Sequence record: PP400780
Length of the DNA stretch: 64,000 nucleotides
Source of the DNA: Escherichia phage FL18
Strand: one strand, 5' to 3'
The notes beneath the pieces are model-generated. The model did not search any database, was not told the origin of the DNA, and was given only the letters and a program-made list of their open reading frames with translations. Within the stretch, counting starts at the first letter, position 1. Every line of letters begins with the position of its first letter. The position numbers and the translations under genes are program-made. Below are positions 13,493-54,960 of the stretch, in pieces.

Positions 13493-13519
13493 ATCTATGA
13501 ATTGAGCTAAGAGGTGAAA

Positions 13520-14077
13520 ATGTCAGAAACTAAGCCTAAATATAATTACGTAAACAATAAAGAGCTTTTACAAGCTATTATTGATTGGAAAACAGAATTA
13601 GCAAATAATAAAGACCCAAATAAAGTAGTTCGTCAGAATGATACTATCGGATTAGCCATTATGCTTATTGCAGAAGGCTTATCTAAACGTTTCAACTTTT
13701 CAGGATACACCCAGTCTTGGAAACAAGAGATGATTGCAGATGGGATTGAAGCCTCTATTAAGGGACTTCATAATTTCGACGAAACTAAGTACAATAACCC
13801 GCATGCATACATAACTCGAGCTTGTTTTAATGCTTTTGTCCAACGTATCAAAAAAGAACGTAAGGAAGTTGCAAAGAAATATAGTTACTTCGTTCATAAT
13901 GTCTACGACAGTCATGACGATGATATGGTAGCGTTGGTAGATGAAACGTTTATTCAAGACATCTACGATAAAATGACGCATTATGAAGAATCCGCTTATA
14001 AAGCTCCTGGGGCTGAAAAGAAGGAAGTTGTTAGCGATTCGCCTAGTTTGGATTTTTTATATGAGGACGACAATTGA
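13520..14077 (+). CDS. 55: late-transcription sigma factor gp55
   Basis: [33 protein letters not shown] ... near-identical to recalled T4 gp55; ATG at 13520 with GAGG SD (ORF-track start 13514 is an upstream GTG). Confidence 0.9.
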
Positions 14078-15064: not shown

Positions 15065-16084
15065 ATGAAAATTTTGCACTTAGGCGACTTCCATATCGGA
15101 GTCAAACAAGACGACCCATGGGTTCAAGATATTCAACGTGATGGTATTCGACAAGCAATTGAATACTCTAAGAAACACGGGATTAAAACTTGGATTCAGT
15201 ACGGTGATTGGTTTGACGTCCGTAAAGCAATAACACATCGTACAATGGAATTCAATCGTGAAATCGTTGATATGATTTCTAAAGCAGGCATTCACGTTCA
15301 TGTCACGATAGGAAACCATGACATGGCGTTTAAGAATACAATAACACCTAACACTGTTTCTGAATTGTTAACTCAATTTGAAAACTTTACTATTTACGAG
15401 CATCCGACTACTGTAGATTTTGACGGATGTCTGATTGATATCGTTCCATGGATGTGTGAAGAAAATACAGGTGAAATCTTAGAGCACATCAAGACTTCTT
15501 CTGCCGCATATTGTGTTGGGCACTGGGAACTGAATGGCTTTTATTTCTATAAAGGGATGAAGTCTCATGGGCTTGAACCTGATTTCTTAAAGACCTATAA
15601 ACAAGTCTGGTCTGGCCACTTCCATACAATCTCTGAAGCTGCTAACGTCAAATATATTGGGACACCATGGACCCTTACTGCAGGTGATGAGAACGACCCT
15701 CGCGGATTCTGGGTATTTGACACTGATGTTGAACGTATGGAATTTATTCCTAATGAAACAACATGGCATCGACGAATCACTTATCCATTTAAAGGCAAAA
15801 TCAATTATTCTGATTATACTAATCTAGCCGTACGTGTTATAGTATCAGAAATTGATTCAGAGTTGACTAAGTTTGAATCTGAACTTGAAAAAGTAGTTCA
15901 CTCTCTTCGTATGGTTTCTAAAGTTGATAACAGTGTTGAATCTGATGACGACCAGGAAATCGAGATTAAATCACTTCAAGATATCATTAAAGAATATATT
16001 GACGCGATTCCAGATATCTCAGACGAAGACAGAGAAGCGCTGGTCAAATATTCCAACGAACTTTATATTGAGGCGACACAATGA
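15065..16084 (+). CDS. 47: recombination endonuclease subunit gp47 (Mre11/SbcD-like)
   Basis: 339 aa; phosphoesterase motifs (LHLGDFH, GNHD); synteny with gp46. Confidence 0.9.
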   Translation: MKILHLGDFHIGVKQDDPWVQDIQRDGIRQAIEYSKKHGIKTWIQYGDWFDVRKAITHRTMEFNREIVDMISKAGIHVHVTIGNHDMAFKNTITPNTVSELLTQFENFTIYEHPTTVDFDGCLIDIVPWMCEENTGEILEHIKTSSAAYCVGHWELNGFYFYKGMKSHGLEPDFLKTYKQVWSGHFHTISEAANVKYIGTPWTLTAGDENDPRGFWVFDTDVERMEFIPNETTWHRRITYPFKGKINYSDYTNLAVRVIVSEIDSELTKFESELEKVVHSLRMVSKVDNSVESDDDQEIEIKSLQDIIKEYIDAIPDISDEDREALVKYSNELYIEATQ

Positions 16085-22556: not shown

Positions 22557-25268
22557 ATGAAAGAATTTTACTTAACGGTTGAACAGATTGGTGATTCAAT
22601 TTTTGAACGTTACATCGATTCTAATGGCCGTGAACGTACTCGTGAAGTAGAATATAAACCATCACTGTTTGCTCATTGTCCAGAAAGTCAGGCTACGAAA
22701 TATTTCGATATCTACGGTAAGCCGTGTACTCGTAAGTTGTTCGCTAATATGCGTGATGCCTCCCAATGGATTAAACGCATGGAAGATATCGGACTTGAAG
22801 CACTTGGCATGGACGATTTCAAATTGGCGTATTTGTCTGACACTTATAACTATGAAATCAAATACGACCATACAAAAATTCGTGTGGCTAACTTCGACAT
22901 CGAAGTAACATCTCCGGATGGGTTCCCTGAGCCATCACAAGCAAAACATCCGATTGATGCTATCACCCATTATGACTCAATTGACGACAGGTTCTACGTA
23001 TTTGATCTATTGAATTCTCCATATGGTAATGTAGAAGAATGGTCTATTGAAATCGCTGCTAAGCTTCAAGAACAAGGCGGTGATGAAGTTCCATCTGAAA
23101 TTATCGATAAAATCATTTATATGCCGTTCGATAACGAAAAAGAATTGTTGATGGAATATCTCAACTTCTGGCAACAGAAAACTCCTGTCATTTTGACTGG
23201 ATGGAACGTTGAGTCATTCGATATTCCATATGTGTATAACCGAATCAAGAATATTTTTGGCGAATCTACTGCGAAACGTTTATCACCGCATCGTAAAACT
23301 CGTGTTAAAGTTATCGAAAACATGTATGGTTCTCGTGAAATCATTACATTGTTCGGTATCTCTGTTCTTGATTACATTGACCTTTACAAAAAATTCTCTT
23401 TTACCAATCAACCGTCGTATTCTCTGGATTACATTTCAGAATTTGAATTGAACGTTGGTAAACTGAAATATGATGGCCCTATTTCTAAGCTTCGTGAAAG
23501 CAATCACCAACGATATATAAGCTATAACATCATCGACGTGTATCGTGTATTGCAAATTGATGCTAAGCGTCAGTTCATCAACTTGAGTTTGGACATGGGT
23601 TATTATGCTAAGATACAGATTCAATCTGTGTTTAGCCCAATTAAAACATGGGATGCTATTATTTTTAATAGCCTTAAAGAGCAGAACAAGGTGATTCCAC
23701 AAGGTCGTTCTCACCCGGTTCAACCTTATCCCGGCGCTTTTGTTAAGGAACCTATTCCAAATCGATACAAATATGTAATGAGTTTCGACCTTACATCTCT
23801 GTATCCAAGTATTATTCGCCAAGTGAATATTAGCCCGGAAACAATAGCAGGAACGTTTAAAGTAGCTCCATTGCATGATTATATTAACGCAATCGCTGAA
23901 CGTCCTTCAGATGTGTACAGTTGCTCTCCTAACGGCATGATGTATTATAAAGACCGTGATGGTGTAGTTCCAACTGAAATCACTAAGGTCTTTAATCAAC
24001 GTAAAGAACATAAAGGTTACATGCTTGCAGCTCAACGTAATGGTGAAATAATTAAAGAGGCATTGCATAATCCTAATCTTTCTGTTGACGAACCATTAGA
24101 TGTTGATTATCGTTTCGACTTCAGCGATGAGATTAAAGAAAAGATTAAAAAGTTGTCTGCTAAATCTCTTAATGAAATGTTGTTTAGAGCTCAACGTACT
24201 GAAGTTGCAGGTATGACTGCACAAATTAACCGTAAATTGCTTATCAACTCGCTTTATGGTGCACTTGGAAACGTTTGGTTCCGTTATTACGATTTGCGTA
24301 ATGCAACTGCAATCACAACATTCGGGCAAATGGCTTTACAGTGGATTGAACGTAAAGTTAATGAATATCTGAATGAAGTTTGTGGTACAGAAGGTGAAGC
24401 TTTCGTTCTATATGGTGATACAGACTCCATTTATGTATCTGCAGATAAAATTATTGATAAGGTTGGTGAATCTAAATTCCGTGATACCAACCATTGGGTA
24501 GACTTCTTAGATAAGTTTGCACGTGAACGTATGGAACCTGCTATTGATAGAGGTTTCCGTGAAATGTGCGAATACATGAACAATAAACAACACTTAATGT
24601 TCATGGACCGAGAAGCTATCGCTGGGCCTCCGCTTGGTTCTAAAGGTATTGGCGGATTTTGGACTGGTAAGAAACGTTATGCATTAAACGTGTGGGATAT
24701 GGAAGGTACTCGTTACGCTGAGCCTAAACTCAAAATCATGGGTCTAGAAACTCAGAAATCTTCGACCCCTAAAGCAGTACAGAAAGCTCTTAAAGAATGT
24801 ATTCGTCGTATGCTTCAAGAAGGTGAAGAATCATTACAAGAATATTTTAAAGAGTTTGAAAAAGAATTCCGTCAATTGAATTATATTAGCATCGCGTCGG
24901 TATCTTCTGCGAATAACATTGCTAAATATGACGTAGGTGGATTCCCTGGTCCTAAATGCCCGTTCCATATTCGTGGAATTCTGACATATAACCGAGCTAT
25001 CAAAGGTAATATCGATGCACCACAAGTTGTAGAAGGTGAAAAAGTATATGTTCTGCCTTTACGTGAAGGAAACCCATTCGGTGATAAATGTATCGCATGG
25101 CCTTCTGGTACTGAAATCACAGATTTAATTAAAGACGATGTACTTCATTGGATGGACTACACTGTTCTCCTTGAGAAGACATTTATTAAACCACTTGAAG
25201 GATTCACATCAGCAGCGAAACTCGATTATGAGAAGAAAGCATCTCTGTTCGATATGTTCGATTTTTGA
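22557..25268 (+). CDS. 43: DNA polymerase gp43 (family B, RB69-type)
   Basis: 903 aa; exonuclease motif FDIEV, polymerase motifs DLTSLYPSII and YGDTDS; N-terminus matches recalled RB69 gp43. Confidence 0.97.
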   Translation: MKEFYLTVEQIGDSIFERYIDSNGRERTREVEYKPSLFAHCPESQATKYFDIYGKPCTRKLFANMRDASQWIKRMEDIGLEALGMDDFKLAYLSDTYNYEIKYDHTKIRVANFDIEVTSPDGFPEPSQAKHPIDAITHYDSIDDRFYVFDLLNSPYGNVEEWSIEIAAKLQEQGGDEVPSEIIDKIIYMPFDNEKELLMEYLNFWQQKTPVILTGWNVESFDIPYVYNRIKNIFGESTAKRLSPHRKTRVKVIENMYGSREIITLFGISVLDYIDLYKKFSFTNQPSYSLDYISEFELNVGKLKYDGPISKLRESNHQRYISYNIIDVYRVLQIDAKRQFINLSLDMGYYAKIQIQSVFSPIKTWDAIIFNSLKEQNKVIPQGRSHPVQPYPGAFVKEPIPNRYKYVMSFDLTSLYPSIIRQVNISPETIAGTFKVAPLHDYINAIAERPSDVYSCSPNGMMYYKDRDGVVPTEITKVFNQRKEHKGYMLAAQRNGEIIKEALHNPNLSVDEPLDVDYRFDFSDEIKEKIKKLSAKSLNEMLFRAQRTEVAGMTAQINRKLLINSLYGALGNVWFRYYDLRNATAITTFGQMALQWIERKVNEYLNEVCGTEGEAFVLYGDTDSIYVSADKIIDKVGESKFRDTNHWVDFLDKFARERMEPAIDRGFREMCEYMNNKQHLMFMDREAIAGPPLGSKGIGGFWTGKKRYALNVWDMEGTRYAEPKLKIMGLETQKSSTPKAVQKALKECIRRMLQEGEESLQEYFKEFEKEFRQLNYISIASVSSANNIAKYDVGGFPGPKCPFHIRGILTYNRAIKGNIDAPQVVEGEKVYVLPLREGNPFGDKCIAWPSGTEITDLIKDDVLHWMDYTVLLEKTFIKPLEGFTSAAKLDYEKKASLFDMFDF

Positions 25269-25308
25269 TATAATGTCATGGACGGTAAACTAATTAAATG
25301 AGAGAAAT

Positions 25309-25944
25309 ATGAAAACTACTCCTATTACTATCGCTATTGACGCAATCATAAAACAAGCTTCTTCTTTGGCCGCTATGGCCAAAGTAATTAGTCAAAACCC
25401 TGCTCGTTATAATGCTATTCTAGAAACTCTTCGACGCCCTGGACTTAGTAATTATGAAAGCCGGGTAATTATTACAGGTGTTGGTAAGAATGCTAATATC
25501 GCAACTAAAGCTTCCGAGACATTTGCTTCACTAGGTATTCCTAGCATGTATTTGAACACTGGGCATTATTCTCACGGTGATGCAGGATTCATTGCGCCTA
25601 ATGATGTGTTGATTCATATTAGTCGTTCTGGTAAGACTGAAGAAATGATAGGTGTTGCTAAACATCTTCGTATGATTCGTCCTCAGGTTAAACAGATTCT
25701 GTTACATTGTAACCCAGACATTCCACAAGAATACGAAGCTCTTTTTGATTATACGTTCTGTACTGGCATCGCGGTAGAGGTTGATGAGAATTCTCTGGCT
25801 CCGACTATGTCCACTACATTGTTGTTAGCGCTTATCGATACGTTTGCTATCAACCTTTCGTCTGAACGTGGATTTACCTCTAATGATTTCCTTAAGTTCC
25901 ATCCAGGCGGTGCACTAGGTGCCATGTTACGAGGCGAACAATGA
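25309..25944 (+). CDS. SIS-domain sugar-phosphate isomerase (arabinose-5-phosphate isomerase KdsD/GutQ-like, no CBS domains)
   Basis: ITGVGKNANIATK ... HGDAGFIAPNDVLIHISRSGKTEE ... APTMSTTLLLALID ... FHPGGALG align with recalled KdsD SIS-domain motifs. Confidence 0.7.
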   Translation: MKTTPITIAIDAIIKQASSLAAMAKVISQNPARYNAILETLRRPGLSNYESRVIITGVGKNANIATKASETFASLGIPSMYLNTGHYSHGDAGFIAPNDVLIHISRSGKTEEMIGVAKHLRMIRPQVKQILLHCNPDIPQEYEALFDYTFCTGIAVEVDENSLAPTMSTTLLLALIDTFAINLSSERGFTSNDFLKFHPGGALGAMLRGEQ

Positions 25945-26084
25945 AAGCAATAACAATAGGACTTTTACTATTGATGCTTGTCATGACTATCTACTGGAGC
26001 TTAACGGCTCCGGTAATGATTCCAACACTTGTAATTGGATGGATTATGATTGGACTACAAGCAAAGTATGAATGCTTTAACTAG
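25941..26084 (+). CDS. small membrane protein (47 aa)
   Basis: manual translation MKAITIGLLLLMLVMTIYWSLTAPVMIPTLVIGWIMIGLQAKYECFN; ATGA overlap with SIS gene stop; below ORF-track cutoff. Confidence 0.4.
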   Translation: MKAITIGLLLLMLVMTIYWSLTAPVMIPTLVIGWIMIGLQAKYECFN

Positions 26085-26097
26085 AATAGTGTACAAT
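26070..26097 (+). promoter_or_regulatory. putative MotA-dependent middle promoter (MotA box AATGCTTTA, -10 TACAAT 12 nt downstream)
   Basis: aatgctttaactagaatagtgtacaat upstream of nucleotidyltransferase-kinase gene. Confidence 0.4.
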
Positions 26098-26125
26098 ACT
26101 CCTACTTACCAATGAGGACTTTAAC

Positions 26126-27811
26126 ATGAAAAAAGCTGTTATTCTTGGTGCTGGACTGGCAACTCGTTTGTATCCAATAACGCATCATATTCCTAAGGTG
26201 CTTGTTAACTATAAACAAGATACTATTCTGAGCAATTTGTATACAATTTATTCTGACCTTGGCGCAGATGAAATTATTGTAGTAGTTCATTCAAAATTTG
26301 CTGAAACTGTTCGAGCTTATTGTGAACAAGAAGGGTTCAATGTGACTATTCGTACAGTTGATGAAGCGTATGGTTCTGCTTATGCTCTTGCTAAATTACA
26401 CAAAGATTTAGACGGCCATAATGTAATTGTTAACTGGTGTGATATTATTCCTGATTTTGGTTCATGGTCTTGGAATGTTAACGCAATCTATGTTAAGGGT
26501 GACGAATGTCGATATAATTTCGACGGTGAAAATATCACTAACGTAGGTTCAACAGGTGGTAATGTTGTAGGAATTTATCAGTTCAAAGACTGGGAATTCT
26601 ATATGGGTTCTACTGATGAGGAAATTCATGAATACTGCAAAGGACGTGATTTCGTAGAATTCCTTTACGGCAGCGCATTCAATAAATCAGAGCTTATGAA
26701 TCTAATTGATTTAGGTGATATGCCTAAACTTGAAAAAGCTCATGAAGTTCGTGAACTTAATCGTAGTTTTAATGCAGTTGAAATTGGTGAAGAAACTGTA
26801 ACTAAATTCGCATTAACCGAACAGGGTCGAGCTCTTCAGAAAGATGAGATTTCGTGGTATCTTAAAGTGAAATCAGATTCAGTTCCTCAGTTAGTTTCTG
26901 TTAATGAAAATAACTTTGAAATGGAACGCATTAAAGGTAAGCCTGCATTTGAATATATTAAATCCAAATCAAGTCTTGCTCGTCCACAAATTGTTGATGC
27001 AATTTTAGATGCACTGAAATTCAGCACAGACACTTATTTTGTAAGTCCTGAAACTGTTCGTCGTGATTTCACTAAAGAATTCTATACGAAAGTTATTGAT
27101 CGTTGTGAAAGCATTCAACCATTGATTGATTCATTTGGTAAAATCACACATGTGAACTACACTAAGATTGGACGTCTGAAGCCAATGCTGAAACAAGCTT
27201 TAGAACACCTCATTCGTTATCATAACCGTTCTCAGGGACAGTACTCTGTTATTCACGGTGACCCGAACTTCAGTAATACTATGATTACTGATAATGGCGA
27301 AGTCAAGTTTATCGACCCTCGTGGATATTTTGGTGAAACCAAGATTTACGGGCCAAAATTGTACGATGAAGCTAAAGTGCTTTATGCTGTTTCAGGTTAT
27401 GATGAATTCAATGCTAATCCGACCTGGGGGCAGTTTACTATTGATGAAACAACTTGTAATGTGACTATTAACATCAATCCATTAGTTTACAAATATAGAA
27501 AGATGAGTTCGTTTAACGAGTATCATCATTTGGCAGTGGCAATTATCTGGATTGCATTAGGCGGTTATTTCAAGAATAATCCACTTAAAGCGGTAGCCGC
27601 ATATTATAAAGGTATGGAACTTCTGACTAAGCAATTACGTAACATGGGCCGTGTACTTCAGGACGGCTCTATTAGTTATGACGTAGCAGAACCTGTAACG
27701 GCTACTCTGATTACAAAAAATCCTGGTAAATGGGTACTAACTGATAAAGAAACTGGTGTTTCCTATCGTCCAATCGGTGGCGATATCACTCATCAATGGG
27801 AACGAATCTAA
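26126..27811 (+). CDS. bifunctional sugar-1-phosphate nucleotidyltransferase / kinase-like fusion protein
   Basis: N-terminus MKKAVILGAGLATRLYPITHHIPKVLV (sugar nucleotidyltransferase G-rich loop); C-terminal region has protein-kinase-like HGDPNFSNTMI (catalytic loop) and FIDPRGYFG (DFG-like) as in APH/choline-kinase-type small-molecule kinases. Confidence 0.65.
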   Translation: MKKAVILGAGLATRLYPITHHIPKVLVNYKQDTILSNLYTIYSDLGADEIIVVVHSKFAETVRAYCEQEGFNVTIRTVDEAYGSAYALAKLHKDLDGHNVIVNWCDIIPDFGSWSWNVNAIYVKGDECRYNFDGENITNVGSTGGNVVGIYQFKDWEFYMGSTDEEIHEYCKGRDFVEFLYGSAFNKSELMNLIDLGDMPKLEKAHEVRELNRSFNAVEIGEETVTKFALTEQGRALQKDEISWYLKVKSDSVPQLVSVNENNFEMERIKGKPAFEYIKSKSSLARPQIVDAILDALKFSTDTYFVSPETVRRDFTKEFYTKVIDRCESIQPLIDSFGKITHVNYTKIGRLKPMLKQALEHLIRYHNRSQGQYSVIHGDPNFSNTMITDNGEVKFIDPRGYFGETKIYGPKLYDEAKVLYAVSGYDEFNANPTWGQFTIDETTCNVTININPLVYKYRKMSSFNEYHHLAVAIIWIALGGYFKNNPLKAVAAYYKGMELLTKQLRNMGRVLQDGSISYDVAEPVTATLITKNPGKWVLTDKETGVSYRPIGGDITHQWERI

Positions 27812-28197
27812 TGCACCGTGTAGAAAACATGCTTAATCTTTGTTTTGATGTCGATGATTGTATAACAGAGTGGAATAACAATCGTGATTACGTGAACTTC
27901 AAACCTGACGTCGAAATGGTGTCTGCCATTAATGCCCTGTATGATGCAGGGCATACCATAACGCTTTACACTGCTCGCGGTATGAAGTCAGTAGGTCCTG
28001 GACGTATAGCAATTGACATTCTCCCAAGTCTGATTCAGAACTTGGAAAACATTGGTTTGAAGTACCATAATTTGCTAACACATAAACCAGTATATGATTG
28101 GATTATCGACGACAAAGCTATGCGTCCTGACGAATTCAAAGCTCTTATGAATAAAGGCGAATTCGAAACATTTAAATCGTATAAACCGAATCTATAA
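27811..28197 (+). CDS. HAD-superfamily phosphatase-like protein (start uncertain: 27796, 27811 or 27829)
   Basis: N-terminal LCFDVDDCIT (motif I-like DxD), TITLYTARG (motif II-like), WIIDDK (motif IV-like). Confidence 0.5.
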   Translation: MHRVENMLNLCFDVDDCITEWNNNRDYVNFKPDVEMVSAINALYDAGHTITLYTARGMKSVGPGRIAIDILPSLIQNLENIGLKYHNLLTHKPVYDWIIDDKAMRPDEFKALMNKGEFETFKSYKPNL

Positions 28198-28253
28198 TAA
28201 TTTAAGTAAGACCTGCAAAAACCATCGCGTCAATTAACGTGAGATGCAAAAAA

Positions 28254-29414
28254 ATGAATACTTTTAAAATTGGAACGAATTTTGATTTAGCTCTTCTTGA
28301 TAAAATCGTAGAGCTCAATAAAACTTATCCTAATAGCTTGATAAACGAAGTATACGGCTCTACAAGAGAAATGGCTTTTGTAGCAGCCAGACCTGATTTT
28401 AGGCTTCCTGACGTTGACAAAAAGATGTTAGAAGATTACGTTAAACGTTGTAACGAATTAGGTATTTGCTTTAACTATACACTCAACACGATAAATCCTG
28501 GTTCAAAAAGAGAACTAGTTGAGTGGAAGAAGAAAGCTATTCAGGATTATGTTCAGTATCTTTGGTCAATAGGTGTATGGCGTATTACTATCGCTAACCC
28601 TGTTGTTATGGAAATTGTTCGTGAAGTCAATAAAGACATTGAGATTGAAGTTTCAACAATTCTACATGTCGATGCTGTAACTCAAATCAAATACTTGCAT
28701 GACCAGTATAATATCAAAAAGGTCTGCTGTGGAATTCATAAGAACCGTTCAGTTTCTTTCCTGAAGCGTGCAGCAGAGTTTTGCAATAAGAACAATATAA
28801 TATTTGAAGTTCTTGTAAATGAGTTCTGTTCTAATGCTGGTAAAGGGTATACAACACATTGTAGCTATCGTGACTCTTGCTATATTTTCCATAGTACTGA
28901 TGTTACAGCTGATGATGCTAAATCCTTAAACGGATATCCTATGCAGCACTGTATTAAAGCTCGTGATACAGACCCATTTAACTGGTTGAGAACTCGTTTT
29001 GTTCGTCCTCAAGATTTGAAACTTTATAATGATATTGGTATCACTCAATTCAAAGTTTCAGGACGTACAGGTAGCACAGACTACATTTTGAAAGTTCTTG
29101 AAGCATACGCTTCTGAAAAGTTTGAAGGTAATTTGTTAGAACTGTGGAAGCCTTTAGAGACTATTTTCACTCTTGAAAACGAAACTGAGTTTTCACATAC
29201 AGTAAATATTGAAACCTCTTTGTTAGATGGCTTTTTAGAAAAAAGGTGGTTCAGACATCCAGATTTCGATTGTGCTAATGAAATCTGCGGGACGACGTGT
29301 ACATATTGTGAAAGATATTATAAACGTCAATTATCTAAAAACGGGTTAGCAGAAAACTCTATATCTATTATTGATATAACTAACTCTGATGACGCTTTGA
29401 GGTACCCGGAATGA
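28254..29414 (+). CDS. Cys-rich protein of unknown function (candidate metallo/Fe-S enzyme)
   Basis: 386 aa from ATG at 28254; Cys clusters CCGIH, FCSNAGKGYTTHCSYRDSC and C-terminal CANEICGTTCTYC (contains CX3CX2C). Confidence 0.5.
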   Translation: MNTFKIGTNFDLALLDKIVELNKTYPNSLINEVYGSTREMAFVAARPDFRLPDVDKKMLEDYVKRCNELGICFNYTLNTINPGSKRELVEWKKKAIQDYVQYLWSIGVWRITIANPVVMEIVREVNKDIEIEVSTILHVDAVTQIKYLHDQYNIKKVCCGIHKNRSVSFLKRAAEFCNKNNIIFEVLVNEFCSNAGKGYTTHCSYRDSCYIFHSTDVTADDAKSLNGYPMQHCIKARDTDPFNWLRTRFVRPQDLKLYNDIGITQFKVSGRTGSTDYILKVLEAYASEKFEGNLLELWKPLETIFTLENETEFSHTVNIETSLLDGFLEKRWFRHPDFDCANEICGTTCTYCERYYKRQLSKNGLAENSISIIDITNSDDALRYPE

Positions 29415-29650
29415 TTTCTAGAAAAACTTTTAATCACCAACTTAATGAAGAGATTTTGACTACGAAACTGAACACTAACGAACAAATTCTTAAAAAGGCC
29501 CTTATGGGCCTGTTTGAAACCAAAGCGGCTAAAGTGATTAAAGGACCTGTTCAATTAGAATATTACGCTGATACATTTCTTCATAGTGTTCTTGGAAGTA
29601 TCGATGCTGAAGCTTTACGTTATATCAACATTGCCAAGAAATTCAAATAA
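29411..29650 (+). CDS. hypothetical protein (79 aa)
   Basis: ATGA-overlapping ORF at end of sugar cassette. Confidence 0.45.
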   Translation: MISRKTFNHQLNEEILTTKLNTNEQILKKALMGLFETKAAKVIKGPVQLEYYADTFLHSVLGSIDAEALRYINIAKKFK

Positions 29651-29692
29651 GCTTTACGAATTGAGTATATAATAAATTGTATTGAGGTAAAC

Positions 29693-30409
29693 ATGGGGAA
29701 ACATAACACAATGAAATATATCAAAGCCGCAGATTTTCAAACCGCATTTAAAGCAGTCAATCGTGAAATTTTAGAAAACCCGGAATTCGTAACTGATTCT
29801 CGTATTGGACGTTGTAATGAAATTGGGTCTATGACAGTAGTTGTTGACACTCCATCATCATTCAAAATGACTGACCCACGTATTAACCGCATCTCTTATG
29901 AATATGCCGAAGACTTCTGGAAGTTTATGATTTCTGGTGGTACCAACGCAGAAGAAGCGTTTAAGGCATATCCTAATGTCGCTAAATTTATTTCTAAACC
30001 AAAATCAGATGTTTTGCCGGCGAACTTCAATACTTTCTATGGTCCTCGCATTGCGGCCCAATTACCAGCTCTTCTAAAAGAACTTAAAGAGAAGCCTAAC
30101 TCTCGAAGAGTTGTGTTCCAAATTCTAGAAAGTTCTGATCAGGCTTTGCTTGATTCGGATGAAACGCTTGAATATCCATGTACTGACTCAGTGACTTATT
30201 ATATTCGTGATGGTAAGCTTTATACCCACTGTCATATGCGTTCTCAGAACTGTGCTGTTGTTATGCAGTTGGATTTTTATCTCCAAGGAAAATTACTTCA
30301 TTATATCGCTAACGAATGCGGTGTAGAAGTTGGTGATTATACTCATACCATGGTAAGTGCCCATGTGTTTGAACGTGATTTTGATTATGTTAAAGGATTC
30401 CTTGACTAA
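29693..30409 (+). CDS. 42: deoxynucleotide hydroxymethylase, thymidylate-synthase family (T4 gp42 dCMP hydroxymethylase-like)
   Basis: YPCTDSVTYYIRDGKLYTHCHMRSQNCAVVMQLDFY matches the TS/dCH catalytic core (PC nucleophile, MRS motif); synteny downstream of 43. Confidence 0.75.
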   Translation: MGKHNTMKYIKAADFQTAFKAVNREILENPEFVTDSRIGRCNEIGSMTVVVDTPSSFKMTDPRINRISYEYAEDFWKFMISGGTNAEEAFKAYPNVAKFISKPKSDVLPANFNTFYGPRIAAQLPALLKELKEKPNSRRVVFQILESSDQALLDSDETLEYPCTDSVTYYIRDGKLYTHCHMRSQNCAVVMQLDFYLQGKLLHYIANECGVEVGDYTHTMVSAHVFERDFDYVKGFLD

Positions 30410-31308
30410 TGGCTATTTTCCGCGTACCAATCTTGAGTATGCGGTCTTATGAAACTGGACAGTATGCTATCCTTAAGGATGGCAACTTCCAACTTCATTT
30501 GCACCGTGCTAATCCGGGTGATGTGATTACATATCCACGTAATGCATCTGATATTAAAGAATGCGAACGTCTTTTCCCAGAATTTAAGTTTGTTCCATTA
30601 TGGTATAAAGATAACGCTTATAACACTCGTAAATATTTCTGGTCTGAAAATGAATTTGTGGTTGATTCATTAATTGCTTATTATGATTGCGATTTTCTAA
30701 TCACAGATATAACTGGATATGACGGCGCTTTTGATGTAGAATTCAATTTCAATATCACTGCAGACCCTAATAAACCACGTTTTTATATTGACGAATTCTT
30801 AAAAACCGACATGTTGTCGGTTAATCGTTCAATCCAAACAACTGTGTTGAATGAACGTCAAAAAGAAGTGCTGGTTAACGCAGGTGCAGATGGTAATAAG
30901 ATTATCGTAACGCAGAAAGTTATACGTCCTTCCATCATGCAGCGTCTTGTAGGTGATTTGGCTCCTATTTATCTAGATGGTATTTTTCATCCATTTCGAA
31001 TTAGTGACCCGTGCTATCGTTTTGAACAAGTGGTTGAATGTGCAATTCAATTAGGTCAACCGCTTTATATAACCGATCCAAATAATAGCTTTGACAGAAA
31101 TAAGTATCCTGAAGAAGCGTTGATTCGAATTTTTAAACCAACTAAAACTGAGTACTATCAAATTCTTAAAGGACGTCCGAAGATTCAATATTTCGAAAAT
31201 CCTGAAGAGGTATTTCATCCAGGTCTTGGTGAGTTCATCTACTTTAATGCTTTAATTTCTTCACCGTATAATATACCTAAATATGAAGATGTCGTAATCG
31301 AGGAATAA
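30409..31308 (+). CDS. hypothetical protein occupying the T4 beta-glucosyltransferase locus (candidate DNA sugar transferase)
   Basis: 299 aa ORF between gene 42 and uvsX; no similarity to recalled T4 beta-GT. Confidence 0.45.
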   Translation: MAIFRVPILSMRSYETGQYAILKDGNFQLHLHRANPGDVITYPRNASDIKECERLFPEFKFVPLWYKDNAYNTRKYFWSENEFVVDSLIAYYDCDFLITDITGYDGAFDVEFNFNITADPNKPRFYIDEFLKTDMLSVNRSIQTTVLNERQKEVLVNAGADGNKIIVTQKVIRPSIMQRLVGDLAPIYLDGIFHPFRISDPCYRFEQVVECAIQLGQPLYITDPNNSFDRNKYPEEALIRIFKPTKTEYYQILKGRPKIQYFENPEEVFHPGLGEFIYFNALISSPYNIPKYEDVVIEE

Positions 31309-31309
31309 A

Positions 31310-31858
31310 ATGGCTAAAATTATTTTAGTAGATGGCCCGGATAATGCTGGTAAAACAACTTTCATTAATGACATAATGGAAATTAGTGAAAGATATGTAA
31401 AAATTGATTTCCCTAAACGAACAGTTGATGGACGTTTCGATGTTAAGTCTCGAAATGAAGTTGGCTGTTTTGAAACGATGTTGAATTATTTAGACCCTAC
31501 TAAGATTTATCTGTTAGACCGTGGATATATTAGTAACTGGGTTTACGGACGTATTCGACAAGATGCGGACTCGGTTCTTGACGTTTATGAACAGGATTAT
31601 ATTCGTCTTTGCCAAAACCATGATGTGTTCACAATTATTTTAACACGTAACGAAATGACTGAAAGTTTTGAAGACGACCTTATTACTTTGTCTTCATTCG
31701 GTTTTAATACAGTCATTTCACATTTTGAAGAGTTTGCAATTCATAACAAAATCCAAACGTATCAATTACTTAATCATGATGGTGCTAACAAAGTTATAGG
31801 ATTTAATGCAAGCGAACGTAATGGTTTGATTACAGAAATCATCAAATGGGCTCGTTAA
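31310..31858 (+). CDS. P-loop nucleoside/nucleotide kinase-like protein
   Basis: Walker A GPDNAGKTT near N-terminus; LLDRGYISNWVYG resembles the DR(Y) motif of TMK/dNK-type kinases. Confidence 0.5.
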   Translation: MAKIILVDGPDNAGKTTFINDIMEISERYVKIDFPKRTVDGRFDVKSRNEVGCFETMLNYLDPTKIYLLDRGYISNWVYGRIRQDADSVLDVYEQDYIRLCQNHDVFTIILTRNEMTESFEDDLITLSSFGFNTVISHFEEFAIHNKIQTYQLLNHDGANKVIGFNASERNGLITEIIKWAR

Positions 31859-31957
31859 GAGCCATTTAAAGTTTTAAATGCTGTATAACCCTTAGTATAT
31901 AATCATCTTATCTTTTAAACATGAGTAAAATATAATGATGCCTATGGAAAAAATACA

Positions 31958-33130
31958 ATGTCTGATTTAAAATCTCGTCTGATTAAAGCTTCTACTTCTA
32001 AAATGACTGCAGACTTGACTAAGTCTAAGCTGTTTAATAATCGTGATGAAGTCCCTACTCGTATTCCGATGTTGAATATTGCACTAGGTGGTGCTCTGAA
32101 TGCAGGATTGCAATCAGGCTTGACTATTTTTGCTGCACCTTCTAAACACTTTAAAACGTTGTTTGGACTGACCATGGTTGCAGCATATATGAAGAAATAT
32201 AAAGATGCAATCTGTTTGTTTTATGACTCAGAATTCGGTGCTTCAGAATCTTATTTTCGTTCAATGGGTGTTGATTTAGACCGTGTAGTTCATACACCAA
32301 TTCAGTCAGTCGAACAACTTAAAGTTGATATGACTAATCAGCTTGACGCTATTGAACGCGGTGATAAAGTTATTATCTTTATCGATTCAATCGGTAATAC
32401 TGCATCTAAGAAAGAAACCGAAGATGCATTGAACGAGAAAGTTGTAGGTGATATGTCTCGTGCTAAGGCACTTAAATCTCTTTTCCGTATTGTGACTCCT
32501 TATCTGACTATTAAAGATATTCCATGTGTTGCAATCAACCATACCGCAATGGAAATTGGTGGATTGTACCCTAAAGAGATTATGGGCGGCGGTACAGGTA
32601 TTCTTTACTCGGCTAACACTGTATTCTTTATCTCTAAACGTCAGGTTAAGGATGGCACTGAATTGACCGGTTATGACTTCACGTTGAAAGCAGAAAAATC
32701 TCGTACAGTTAAAGAGAAATCTACTTTCCCAATCACAGTTAATTTTGATGGTGGTATCGACCCATTCAGTGGCTTGTTAGAAATGGCAACTGAAATCGGT
32801 TTTGTAGTTAAGCCTAAAGCTGGTTGGTATGCTCGTGAATTCCTTGACGAAGAAACAGGTGAAATGATTCGTGAAGAGAAATCATGGCGTGCTAAAGCTA
32901 CTGATTGTGTAGAATTCTGGGGTCCTTTGTTTAAACACAAACCTTTCCGAGATGCAATTGAAACTAAATATAAACTAGGTGCTATCTCTTCTATTAAAGA
33001 AGTTGATGACGCTGTTAATGACCTTATTAATTGCAAAGCAACAACTAAAGTTCCGGTTAAAACTTCTGATGCTCCGTCTGCAGCAGATATAGAAAACGAC
33101 CTTGACGAAATGGAAGATTTCGATGAATAA
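31958..33130 (+). CDS. uvsX: recombinase UvsX (RecA/Rad51 family)
   Basis: 390 aa; MSDLKSRLIKASTSK ... near-identical to recalled T4 UvsX. Confidence 0.95.
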   Translation: MSDLKSRLIKASTSKMTADLTKSKLFNNRDEVPTRIPMLNIALGGALNAGLQSGLTIFAAPSKHFKTLFGLTMVAAYMKKYKDAICLFYDSEFGASESYFRSMGVDLDRVVHTPIQSVEQLKVDMTNQLDAIERGDKVIIFIDSIGNTASKKETEDALNEKVVGDMSRAKALKSLFRIVTPYLTIKDIPCVAINHTAMEIGGLYPKEIMGGGTGILYSANTVFFISKRQVKDGTELTGYDFTLKAEKSRTVKEKSTFPITVNFDGGIDPFSGLLEMATEIGFVVKPKAGWYAREFLDEETGEMIREEKSWRAKATDCVEFWGPLFKHKPFRDAIETKYKLGAISSIKEVDDAVNDLINCKATTKVPVKTSDAPSAADIENDLDEMEDFDE

Positions 33131-53512: not shown

Positions 53513-54325
53513 ATGATTATTGAAACGGCTAAAGAAACGATTATTGGTTCTGGTGGTAAAAGCACAGCATTTACTATTCAAGGCAATAGCAAAGTTTATA
53601 AGATTTTGTCTAATGACCTTTATACAAACAAAGAATTGGCTTGTGTACGTGAATTAATCACAAACTGTATCGATGGACAAATTCTTAATGGTTGCACTGA
53701 TAAGTTTATTGTTCAGGCTCCAGGTCGTTTAGACCCACGTTTTGTAGTTCGAGACTTTGGTCCTGGTATGAGTGATTTCACCATTCGAGGTAATGACGAA
53801 GAGCCAGGAATCTATAACTCATATTTTGCTTCAACTAAAACATCGAGTAACGATTTCATTGGTGGATTCGGACTCGGCTCTAAAGCTCCACTAGCATATA
53901 CCGATACGTTTAACATTACTTCTTATCATAATGGTGAAGTTCGTGGTTATGTAATTTATCAAGATGACAGTGGTCCACAGATTAAGCCAACCTTCGTAGA
54001 TAAGATGGGTCCTGATGACCGGACCGGCGTTGAAGTAGTTGTGCCTGTTAACCCAGAAGATTTTGAAAAGTTCGCATCCGAAATTGCATATGTTATGCGT
54101 CCTCTAGGTGATATTGCAGAAGTTCGCGGTGTTAAAGATATCAAATACTTTCCTGAATTCGATGATGTTTATTTAGCCAAGGAAGCTCCATGGGGTGAAC
54201 GTGGTAATATCATGGCTGTTTATGGTGGTATTGTATATCCAATCGGAAGTGTTATTAAAGAACAAACCTGGATGATGACGCGATGCACACTACGGCTGGT
54301 TAGAATGCAACGAAGTTGTTATTGA
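53513..54325 (+). CDS. rIIA: rIIA-like protein, N-terminal GHKL ATPase domain (apparently truncated/frameshifted)
   Basis: GHKL N-box ELITNCID, G1 box DFGPGM, G2 box GGFGLGSK; only 270 aa before stop versus about 725 aa in T4 rIIA. Confidence 0.6.
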
Positions 54326-54467
54326 AATCCCACCGGTAGATGCAGAATATCTTGAAGAAGGAGACCGCATTTATTTTGGCGAACTACACATCAGAGGTAT
54401 CTATGGTAAAGACGAACTTGGGGCTGTTGAGGCTGAAGAGTCTTCCGACATTTATCCTGTCGAATGA
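54279..54467 (+). other. open frame-0 segment plausibly continuing rIIA after a +1 frame change
   Basis: translation [40 protein letters not shown]... resembles recalled T4 rIIA region ...NWLSIRNEVNYIKFP... Confidence 0.35.
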
Positions 54468-54960
54468 GTTTTTGACTAGCGAAATGAAGGTTAAGATCGC
54501 TGATACTGCTCGGTACTCGTTGAAACAAGATCCAGACCAAAACAAAGAAGATGTAGTTCGACGTTGTAAGGTTGCGGTCTTTGCAGAGTATGTAGTAGCA
54601 AATTGGCTAGACGGATATGTTAATAAAGGTATTGAAGACGTAGAAGACCCGTACACGTATGCATGGGACGTGTTAGCCCATCCCAAGTATTGTGGAATTC
54701 GTGTAGAAGTCAAGACACACCAGATAGATTCTAAATGGATTTCGGTTACCACAGGATACAGTGGTGATTATCCGGGTGGTAATGGAATCAATATAGGGCC
54801 CTTCCTTAATCATCGAGTCGCAGATTGCATTATTATATTAGATGTCAAAGAAACCTCACCTGACGTCTTCTCTTATTCTATAAAGTTCGTGGGAGACCAT
54901 GAAGACCTAAAGAAAATCGTCCGTAAGAGCAACTACAACGGGTGGTATCTTCATCTTTAA
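54340..54960 (+). CDS. hypothetical protein in a third frame (possible rIIA C-terminal remnant or separate gene; weak PD-(D/E)xK-like signature)
   Basis: AWDVLAHPKYCGIRVEVKT contains D ... E-x-K pattern; first ATG downstream of the frame-0 stop is at 54481. Confidence 0.4.
   Translation: MQNILKKETAFILANYTSEVSMVKTNLGLLRLKSLPTFILSNEFLTSEMKVKIADTARYSLKQDPDQNKEDVVRRCKVAVFAEYVVANWLDGYVNKGIEDVEDPYTYAWDVLAHPKYCGIRVEVKTHQIDSKWISVTTGYSGDYPGGNGINIGPFLNHRVADCIIILDVKETSPDVFSYSIKFVGDHEDLKKIVRKSNYNGWYLHL

Follow-up and report, generated by a model that had tools for sequence, protein, structure and literature searches.

Escherichia phage FL18 (sequence record PP400780) carries, within the 64,000-nucleotide stretch analyzed here (the window), two adjacent genes encoding a 299-amino-acid (aa) protein, referred to below as GT1, and a 182-aa P-loop kinase (Table 1). 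The pair is flanked upstream by a gene for a 238-aa thymidylate synthase (ThyA) homologue (29693 to 30409) and downstream by uvsX (31958 to 33130). A sequence-only reading of the window had noticed both open reading frames (ORFs) and taken them to replace the β-glucosyltransferase (β-GT) gene of phage T4. Both are present on the plus strand, and the quoted kinase motifs lie at residues 9 to 17 (GPDNAGKTT) and 68 to 73 (LLDRGY). The replacement holds by position, but the slot is part of an eight-gene module published in 2018 and 2026. The pair is the published candidate first transferase and kinase of the arabinosyl-5-hydroxycytosine module of phages RB69 and HY126, and the locus is already known. 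Fold, orthology, synteny, and gene counting, from which the roles of GT1 and the kinase are deduced, indicate that the two genes probably encode co-translated enzymes, a transferase and a dedicated deoxynucleoside monophosphate (dNMP) kinase, of the cytosine hypermodification module of Mosigviruses (RB69 type).

The locus region is 99.7% identical to that of Escherichia phage JM17 (Mosigvirus) and 98 to 99% identical to that of about 150 further Mosigvirus genomes, among them O157 typing phages, phiC120, and JK36. In one of these records, the ThyA-like gene, GT1, and the kinase are already annotated as “thymidylate synthase,” “glycosyltransferase,” and “thymidylate kinase.” Gene order is the reverse of that in T4: 55, 47, 46, ..., 43, the eight-gene insert, uvsX, 40, and 41. 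The stop codon of the ThyA-like gene overlaps the GT1 start codon (TAATG, 30407 to 30411), a single base separates the GT1 stop codon from the kinase ATG, and GAGGA lies just before the kinase start. The three genes therefore probably form one translational unit. A promoter and terminator scan of positions 25200 to 32100 gave a number of sites not above that in shuffled sequence. The interval between genes 55 and 47, which carries the α-glucosyltransferase gene in T4 according to the sequence-only reading, had been described as holding small ORFs only, and this was borne out: the only ORFs between gp55 (13514 to 14077) and gp47 (15065 to 16084) are 97, 107, and 73 aa long and match DUF5491 and DUF2654. 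The same interval in a closely related annotated Mosigvirus contains the late sigma factor gene, four small hypothetical genes, and then an SbcD-like gene.

The GT1 gene is 97.6% identical at the nucleotide level, with one indel, to ORF047c plus ORF046c of RB69. The RB69 GenBank record splits the frame by one extra T, at the position equivalent to 30953 of the window, where the frame is intact. At the amino acid level, GT1 is 98.7% identical to its counterpart in phage HY126, reportedly the phage studied by He et al. 2026 (Nat Chem Biol). In RB69 and HY126 the pair likewise lies between the ThyA-like gene and uvsX, with no substantive difference. Lee et al. (Nucleic Acids Res 2026, PMC13326640) list RB69 gp46:47 as “arabinosyltransferase 1” and gp45 as “nucleotide kinase.” Thomas et al. 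(2018), who proposed ORF003c as the transferase, had earlier noted that a module of eight genes lies between gene 43 and uvsX. Published work on orthologues that are 97 to 99% identical demonstrates hydroxylation of dCMP by the ThyA-like flavoenzyme, synthesis of UDP-D-arabinofuranose from ribulose-5-phosphate via an isomerase, a kinase/uridylyltransferase, and a HAD phosphatase, and virion DNA in which mono- and di-arabinosylated 5-hydroxycytosine (5hoC) replaces cytosine. Arabinosylated 5hoC in RB69-type phages protects against restriction enzymes, CRISPR-Cas, and DNA glycosylases.

All 238 residues of the ThyA-like protein match PDB entries 9iqc and 9ir2 (E value of 7.9e-161), taken here to be the flavin-dependent enzyme with which phage HY126 makes 5-hydroxy-dCMP. 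The next PDB matches, at E values of ∼1e-11, are ordinary thymidylate synthases and the CMP hydroxymethylase MilA. The motifs EYPC, RSQN, and QLD, read by eye and considered with the structural match over all residues, agree with the signatures L143E, D169N, and N177D described in the literature (E. coli numbering). The RB69 orthologue, gp48, converts dCMP to 5-hydroxy-dCMP with incorporation of 18O from O2 and binds flavin (FMN). Judged by this homology, “gene 42” of Mosigviruses is a 5-hydroxy-dCMP synthase at the T4 gene 42 position and not a dCMP hydroxymethylase, as the sequence-only reading had assumed. Because the upstream gene makes 5-hydroxy-dCMP, the acceptor hydroxyl sits on 5hoC rather than on 5-hydroxymethylcytosine (hmC). 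This corrects the annotation of Mosigvirus “gene 42,” and Mosigvirus DNA lacks hmC. RB69 DNA, analyzed by nuclear magnetic resonance, contains β-D-Araf-3-α-D-Araf-5-hydroxy-2′-deoxycytidine, and a Mosigvirus of the Durham collection contains mono- and di-arabinosides as in RB69, at a ratio of 1:4.

The sugar is D-arabinofuranose and the donor UDP-arabinofuranose (UDP-Araf), with donor genes at 25309 to 28197. A 561-aa protein encoded there has an N-terminal NTP_transferase domain (Pfam E value of 8.5e-10; also NCBIfam nucleotidyltransferase families) with the G-x-G-x-x-T-R...PK nucleotidyltransferase signature (ILGAGLATRLYPITHHIPK) and weak C-terminal APH/fructosamine-kinase matches, while among solved structures only the distant cytidylyltransferase 1jyk was matched. 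Its HY126 counterpart, AfhE, is reported to be a UDP-arabinose pyrophosphorylase making UDP-Araf, and an AfhF-type HAD phosphatase is reported to convert arabinose-1,5-bisphosphate to arabinose-1-phosphate. A second GT-B glycosyltransferase (GT), GT2, is encoded near rIIA, 21 kb from GT1, and matches PDB entries 9iqz and 9ir0 (“phage HY126 glycosyltransferase”; E value of 6.7e-248). The sequence-only reading, which had made the 299-aa protein a positional candidate for the transferase decorating hmC, thus erred in its acceptor, and the protein is not the only transferase; the proposal of a transferase is supported by the GT-B fold described below and by orthology to “arabinosyltransferase 1.” The GT1 family is not detectably related to GT2 of the window (hhalign probability of 0.7%), and GT1 and GT2 are not recent paralogues. 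The number of sugars equals the number of GTs in three characterized phages: one in Thanatos, where the single GT is the GT1 orthologue, two in RB69, and three in DLP3.

Relatives of GT1 were detected by tblastn in 350 phage records (Escherichia, 176; Acinetobacter, 57; Klebsiella, 26; Serratia, 14; others), and a family profile recovered 229 cluster representatives among 1.84 billion proteins. By these searches the family appears small and self-contained; the window protein matches PHROG 3891 with an E value of 1e-155. A phmmer search of the PDB at E values up to 10 gave no matches, T4 β-GT included, in agreement with the lack of similarity to β-GT reported earlier. A structure was predicted with AlphaFold2 from an alignment of 51 homologues 38 to 75% identical to GT1, giving a predicted local distance difference test score of 95.2 and a predicted template modeling (TM) score of 0.89. 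The model contains two Rossmann-like β/α/β domains separated by a cleft, as in GT-B enzymes, and a Foldseek search of the PDB returned MshA with a probability of 1.00 and a TM score of 0.61. The fold prediction that the sequence-only reading had called for thus favors a GT-B protein, although T4 β-GT is not its closest match by fold. On this model, GT1 belongs to the GT-B superfamily by fold, without sequence membership in CAZy family GT4 or Pfam Glycos_transf_1. It is only 8 to 12% identical to the GT4-type retaining enzymes sucrose-phosphate synthase (6kih), BshA (6n1x), MshA (3c4q), and PimA (2gej), from which it also differs in its shortened N-terminal domain, in having no Pfam Glycos_transf_1 match, and in a family profile that reaches no GT4 protein in the PDB or among the 1.84 billion representatives.

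Conservation is concentrated in two blocks. R197 (within PFRISD), K246, and H270-P271-G272 are invariant across the 51 sequences, and in the displayed sequences of that alignment position 275 is always Glu or Asp. The invariant C-terminal residues (R197, K246, and H270-P-G) are predicted to sit at the GT-B nucleotide-sugar site. The second invariant block, M11-R12-S13 and K23-D24-G25-N26, is in the N-terminal domain. In the proposed mechanism, UDP-Araf would be bound in the C-terminal Rossmann domain via R197, K246, the H270-P-G loop, and E275, and GT1 would place the first, α-linked arabinofuranose on O5 of 5hoC, after which GT2 would add the second sugar. As a working assumption that we rate at about even odds, GT1 acts, by analogy with T4, on 5hoC already in DNA. 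GT1 nevertheless differs in several respects from the T4 α- and β-glucosyltransferases: it has 299 rather than 351 to 400 aa and no sequence similarity to them, its acceptor is 5hoC (an ether directly on the ring) rather than hmC, and its sugar is arabinofuranose rather than glucose. In addition, it is joined to a kinase genetically and, in some phages, physically, and DNA as the acceptor is for GT1 a working assumption.

The 182-aa kinase would, in the same scheme, be a thymidylate kinase (Tmk)-type enzyme dedicated to the pathway that takes a 5-substituted dCMP to the diphosphate. Its P loop, VDGPDNAGKTT, fits the Tmk-type pattern [DE]G-x-D-x-x-GK-[ST]-T (EGVDRAGKST in human thymidylate kinase), and its DR-x-Y motif is also of Tmk type; the predicted fold and N-terminal P loop, with a motif of DR-[YF] type following strand 3, are those of the Tmk family. 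Homologues form 27 clusters, and the protein matches PHROG 761. It scores below the Pfam and TIGRFAM cutoffs for Tmk, with no match to PF02223 and only 16.1 bits against TIGR00041 (cutoff, 83), and it has no similarity to the T4 gp1 dNMP kinase (PDB 1dek and 1del). Its role is nonetheless predicted to be that of gp1 for hydroxymethyl-dCMP, conversion of a modified pyrimidine dNMP to the diphosphate, and the phage has this kinase in addition to a gp1-type kinase. The sequence-only reading had left its substrate as either the modified nucleotide or a sugar. Action on a sugar or sugar phosphate might be suggested by a cluster rich in sugar-phosphate enzymes and by substrate-binding residues that differ from those of canonical Tmk. 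We regard it as very improbable: the modeled fold and the P-loop type favor a nucleotide, phosphorylation of the sugar is already attributed to the C-terminal, APH-like domain of the 561-aa protein, and the kinase is kept in modules that lack sugar-activation genes (L053, L056, L059, and L069).

Several observations weigh against a GT1 transferase acting with a dedicated dNMP kinase. No glycosyltransferase family of Pfam or NCBIfam matches GT1 at E values up to 0.1, and the family profile finds no glycosyltransferase in the PDB at E values up to 10. An EX7E-like motif (E267-x7-E275) is present in the window protein, but its first Glu, E267, is not conserved among homologues. The step performed by the kinase is left unexplained, as the RB69 gp1-type kinase gp159 already phosphorylates 5-hydroxy-dCMP to the diphosphate in vitro (Lee et al., PMC13326640). 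Among the orthologues, which share the order ThyA-like gene, GT1, and kinase (GT1, 46 to 49% identity; kinase, 44 to 46%), gp79 of Acinetobacter phage DLP3, assayed alone, was inactive on 5hoC-DNA with UDP-Araf or UDP-arabinopyranose; DLP3, whose product is tri-arabinosyl-5hoC, encodes two GTs besides gp79. The authors of that assay could not distinguish nucleotide-level from DNA-level transfer, while later arabinosyl additions do proceed on DNA in vitro. TH1_063 of Shewanella phage Thanatos, which is reported to have a single GT and has no GT2 homologue in the stretch examined, transferred no xylose to DNA, dCMP, dCTP, or cytosine, although no acceptor had a 5-OH. No direct assay showing arabinosyl transfer by GT1 or a close orthologue was found in the literature surveyed, which did not include He et al. 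2026 or Mahler et al. 2025.

Two further findings that count against a transferase each suggest another function for the 299-aa protein. The best Foldseek matches in the PDB are UDP-GlcNAc 2-epimerases (E values of 1.5e-6 to 5e-6), which also have the GT-B fold and score slightly above MshA. GT1 could on these grounds be a GT-B-fold protein other than a transferase, either a UDP-sugar 2-epimerase-like enzyme or a noncatalytic partner, with GT2 performing all DNA glycosylation; one paper names an “epimerase” among the cluster genes, and no activity has been published for GT1. The published route to UDP-Araf requires no epimerase, however, and GT1-like genes occur in minimal modules without sugar genes, so that we give this alternative little credence. 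The second finding is that purified TH1_063, which is 49% identical to the 299-aa protein, formed UDP-xylose from UTP and xylose-1-phosphate in vitro, whereas TH1_060 did not, suggesting a UDP-pentose pyrophosphorylase acting on UTP and pentose-1-phosphate. This assignment is equally hard to accept for GT1. The fold is GT-B and not that of a nucleotidyltransferase, there is no NTP_transferase match in Pfam, and the G-x-G-x-x-T-R...PK signature is absent from the 299-aa protein and present in its 561-aa neighbor, whose HY126 counterpart is reported to have that role. GT1-like genes also occur in modules without sugar-activation genes, and carryover of a host GalU-type enzyme, we infer, is not excluded in the TH1_063 assay. 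A transferase therefore remains the preferred function of GT1.

Synteny ties GT1 to the hydroxylase and the kinase. Fifty-nine IMG/VR loci with a GT1 relative were scanned for other module genes. In all of the ∼45 loci with ≥33% identity and long enough flanks, the ThyA-like gene is immediately upstream of GT1, and a kinase of the window family is immediately downstream or, in a Dhakavirus/Marfavirus-like group, 2 to 3 kb upstream within the cluster. The same triad is found in metagenomic contigs of 122 and 355 kb at only 28 to 38% identity, where it adjoins a gene for a flavodoxin-like reductase. Modules outside T4-like phages have the order NTP-pyrophosphatase, kinase, GT1, and hydroxylase, mirroring the gp56/gp1/gp42/GT logic of T4. 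The sugar genes vary or are absent; those that stably accompany the hydroxylase are GT1 and the kinase. Marfavirus/Dhakavirus-like loci (L009 to L011, L015 to L019, L024, and L029) retain the ThyA-like gene, GT1, the kinase, and a more divergent 561-aa homologue, but an arabinose-5-phosphate isomerase gene was not detected in the surrounding 10 kb, and the peptidase-U32-family gene is missing as well from the Dhakavirus-like loci. The sugar of these phages may not be arabinose. Two distant metagenomic phage contigs have a Flavodoxin_2 (FMN reductase-like) gene in or beside the cluster, directly preceding the ThyA-like gene in one (L004, 6739 to 7293) and ∼6 kb upstream in the other (L003, 1 to 523). 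The window cluster has no such gene; these neighbors fit the flavin dependence of the hydroxylase.

The link between GT1 and the kinase extends to gene fusion. GT1-like and Tmk-like domains occur in one polypeptide in 9 of 150 listed cluster representatives (229 in total), eight with the order GT1-kinase and one with kinase-GT1 (metagenomic proteins P0254, P0259, P0266, P0272, P0278, P0287, P0288, P0242, and P0261). The fused kinase domain, of ∼180 aa, has the P loop EGFDRIGKD[TS] and the motif TRLFVSDYVYG and is related to the window kinase family (hhalign probability of 95.2%; E value of 2.6e-8; 134 columns); Pfam Thymidylate_kin was detected in one fusion, P0259. In six other listed representatives, a KdsC-like HAD phosphatase is fused to the GT1 N terminus (P0167, P0176, P0179, P0180, P0194, and P0201). 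The transferase-kinase fusions are absent from the literature covered and suggest that the first sugar may be attached at the nucleotide stage, ahead of replication. GT1 would then arabinosylate 5-hydroxy-dCMP, and the associated kinase would phosphorylate arabinosyl-5-O-dCMP, a bulky substrate that would be beyond a gp1-type kinase; the polymerase would incorporate the glycosylated dCTP, and GT2 would extend the sugar on DNA.

Several features agree with such a prereplicative route. The two domains are fused in both orders, and the fused kinase is homologous to that of the window. The genes are adjacent and translationally coupled here and adjacent in most loci. A second dNMP kinase is kept although the gp1-type kinase accepts 5-hydroxy-dCMP, and the inactivity of the DLP3 orthologue on 5hoC-DNA, with its authors' own caveat about nucleotide or DNA, points in the same direction, as does, weakly, the acidic median pI of the GT1 family (5.15). 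A purely DNA-level transferase is hard to reconcile with fusion to a dNMP kinase. Conversely, later arabinosyl additions occur on DNA in vitro, and 5-hydroxydeoxycytidine enters E. coli DNA with the hydroxylase and a gp1-type kinase alone, so that the unglycosylated triphosphate is usable. Fusions need not link consecutive steps, as GT1 is also fused to a HAD phosphatase. To our knowledge, all established phage DNA glycosylations are postreplicative, following the T4 paradigm, which also counts against transfer to the nucleotide. We therefore hold the prereplicative route only tentatively and below the working assumption of transfer to 5hoC in DNA; if true, it would be the first case of prereplicative DNA glycosylation. 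More doubtful still is an extension in which GT1 and the kinase would form one nucleotide-level unit, a mobile core that pairs with either a ThyA-like or a U32/prephenate hydroxylase. The fusions make the substrate of first-sugar addition and the reason for a second dNMP kinase directly testable.

Table 1. Features of the module and of the second transferase gene in the window
Feature	Position	Strand	Matches and counterparts
Arabinose-5-phosphate isomerase, 211 aa	25309..25944	+	RB69 gp55; Pfam SIS; NCBIfam KpsF/GutQ (E 5e-32), KdsD (E 2e-30)
Bifunctional protein, 561 aa	26126..27811	+	RB69 ORF53_52c; analogue of HY126 AfhE; Pfam NTP_transferase, weak APH
HAD-type phosphatase, 133 aa	27796..28197	+	RB69 gp51; AfhF-like; NCBIfam TIGR01689 (E 1.9e-13)
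Peptidase-U32-family protein, 391 aa	28239..29414	+	RB69 gp50; Pfam Peptidase_U32
79-aa ORF	29411..29650	+	PHROG 8601, function unknown
ThyA-superfamily 5-hydroxy-dCMP synthase (by homology), 238 aa	29693..30409	+	RB69 gp48 orthologue; Pfam Thymidylat_synt (E 2e-15); PDB 9iqc/9ir2
GT1, putative transferase, 299 aa, ATG start	30409..31308	+	Minimal GT-B fold (predicted); orthologue of RB69 gp46:47, DLP3 gp79, Thanatos TH1_063
P-loop nucleotide kinase (predicted), 182 aa, ATG start	31310..31858	+	Thymidylate-kinase fold; orthologue of RB69 gp45, DLP3 gp78, Thanatos TH1_064
GT2, GT-B glycosyltransferase, 366 aa	52107..53207	+	RB69 ORF003c/gp3 (“β-arabinosyltransferase 2”); PDB 9iqz/9ir0; PHROG 8302

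The peptidase-U32-family gene of the module is labeled “sugar or heterocycle reductase,” without discussion, in a table of Lee et al. (PMC13326640) and “putative enzyme involved in UDP-arabinose biosynthesis” in the BASEL annotation. Its product matches Pfam PF01136 with 42.2 bits (cutoff, 22.4) and UbiU weakly; no solved structure was matched by sequence. E190, C197, C208, and C214, and a C-terminal cluster of four Cys residues (C345, C350, C354, and C357), are invariant in 23 phage homologues. The essential residues of two U32 proteins are E162, C170, and C177 in TrhP and E161, C169, and C176 in RlhA, and their counterparts in the phage protein are E190, C197, and C208/C214. RlhA and TrhP are needed to form 5-hydroxycytidine in rRNA and 5-hydroxyuridine in tRNA by a route that depends on prephenate but not on O2. 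By analogy, the phage U32 protein is a candidate for a prephenate-dependent, O2-independent cytosine C-5 hydroxylase. The idea is absent from the literature covered, and no combination of prephenate, 5-hydroxycytosine, and phage was found in the literature searched.

Gene content bears on this proposal in both directions. Four contigs unrelated to T4 (L053, L056, L059, and L069) carry an NTP-pyrophosphatase or deaminase gene, the kinase, GT1, and U32 and have no ThyA-like gene, and GT1 and U32 likewise occur without a ThyA-like hydroxylase in L057, L060, and L062. The U32 genes of Thanatos-1 and Erwinia phage Virsaitis27 are coupled at their 3′ ends to an ORF that scores above the threshold for a type II chorismate mutase (CM; Pfam CM_2, 34.7 and 44.6 bits), and phage loci of the Edwardsiella, Klebsiella-type, Enterobacter, and Serratia-type groups have a CM-like ORF at this site. 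Six such ORFs, when aligned, show no variation at the columns corresponding to the AroQ catalytic residues Arg11, Arg28, Lys39, Glu52, Ser84, and Gln88; the product of chorismate mutase is prephenate. The U32 gene was found in 221 phage records, with all matches at least 80% identical and all organism names listed belonging to Enterobacterales or Shewanella. Acinetobacter is outside the 10 most frequent names of these records, although 57 Acinetobacter phage records carry GT1, and no U32 gene was found within 10 kb of GT1 in the five Acinetobacter phage loci examined. Because DLP3 makes tri-arabinosyl-5hoC without U32, the U32 protein is dispensable for making and transferring the sugar. The U32 gene is absent from the Dhakaviruses of E. 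coli, which counts against a role as hydroxylase. The 79-aa ORF downstream of U32 in the window was considered as a divergent chorismate mutase and rejected (no CM_2 match at an E value of 10; hhalign probability of 5.9% against the phage CM_2 alignment); it has no Pfam match of any kind even at an E value of 10, and that it does not appear to be a chorismate mutase is a further point against the hydroxylase idea. The U32 gene with its chorismate mutase partner in related phages is nevertheless a concrete candidate for O2-free 5hoC synthesis in gut phages, and this association and the transferase-kinase fusions are the parts worth following up.

The start of the U32 gene in the window is uncertain. 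The longest ORF begins with GTG at 28239, and most annotated orthologues begin one to six codons further in, probably at the ATG of MNTFKIG near 28254. In phages NRG-P0074 (L001, 3403 to 4164) and Virsaitis27 (L066, 3352 to 3990), an inserted homing endonuclease gene separates U32 from the 561-aa or HAD gene; the corresponding region of the window, 27796 to 28239, has no such insertion. The module is a hot spot for the insertion of Seg-like endonuclease genes.

Beyond GT2, at 53513 to 54960 of the window, rIIA ends after 270 codons and rIIB is missing; a 206-aa denB-like ORF follows directly, and then ndd and gene 52. Among 167 matching records, this contiguous rIIA/denB-like arrangement is shared only with phage AV116 (OR352946), and the genome appears to carry an rIIA-rIIB deletion.

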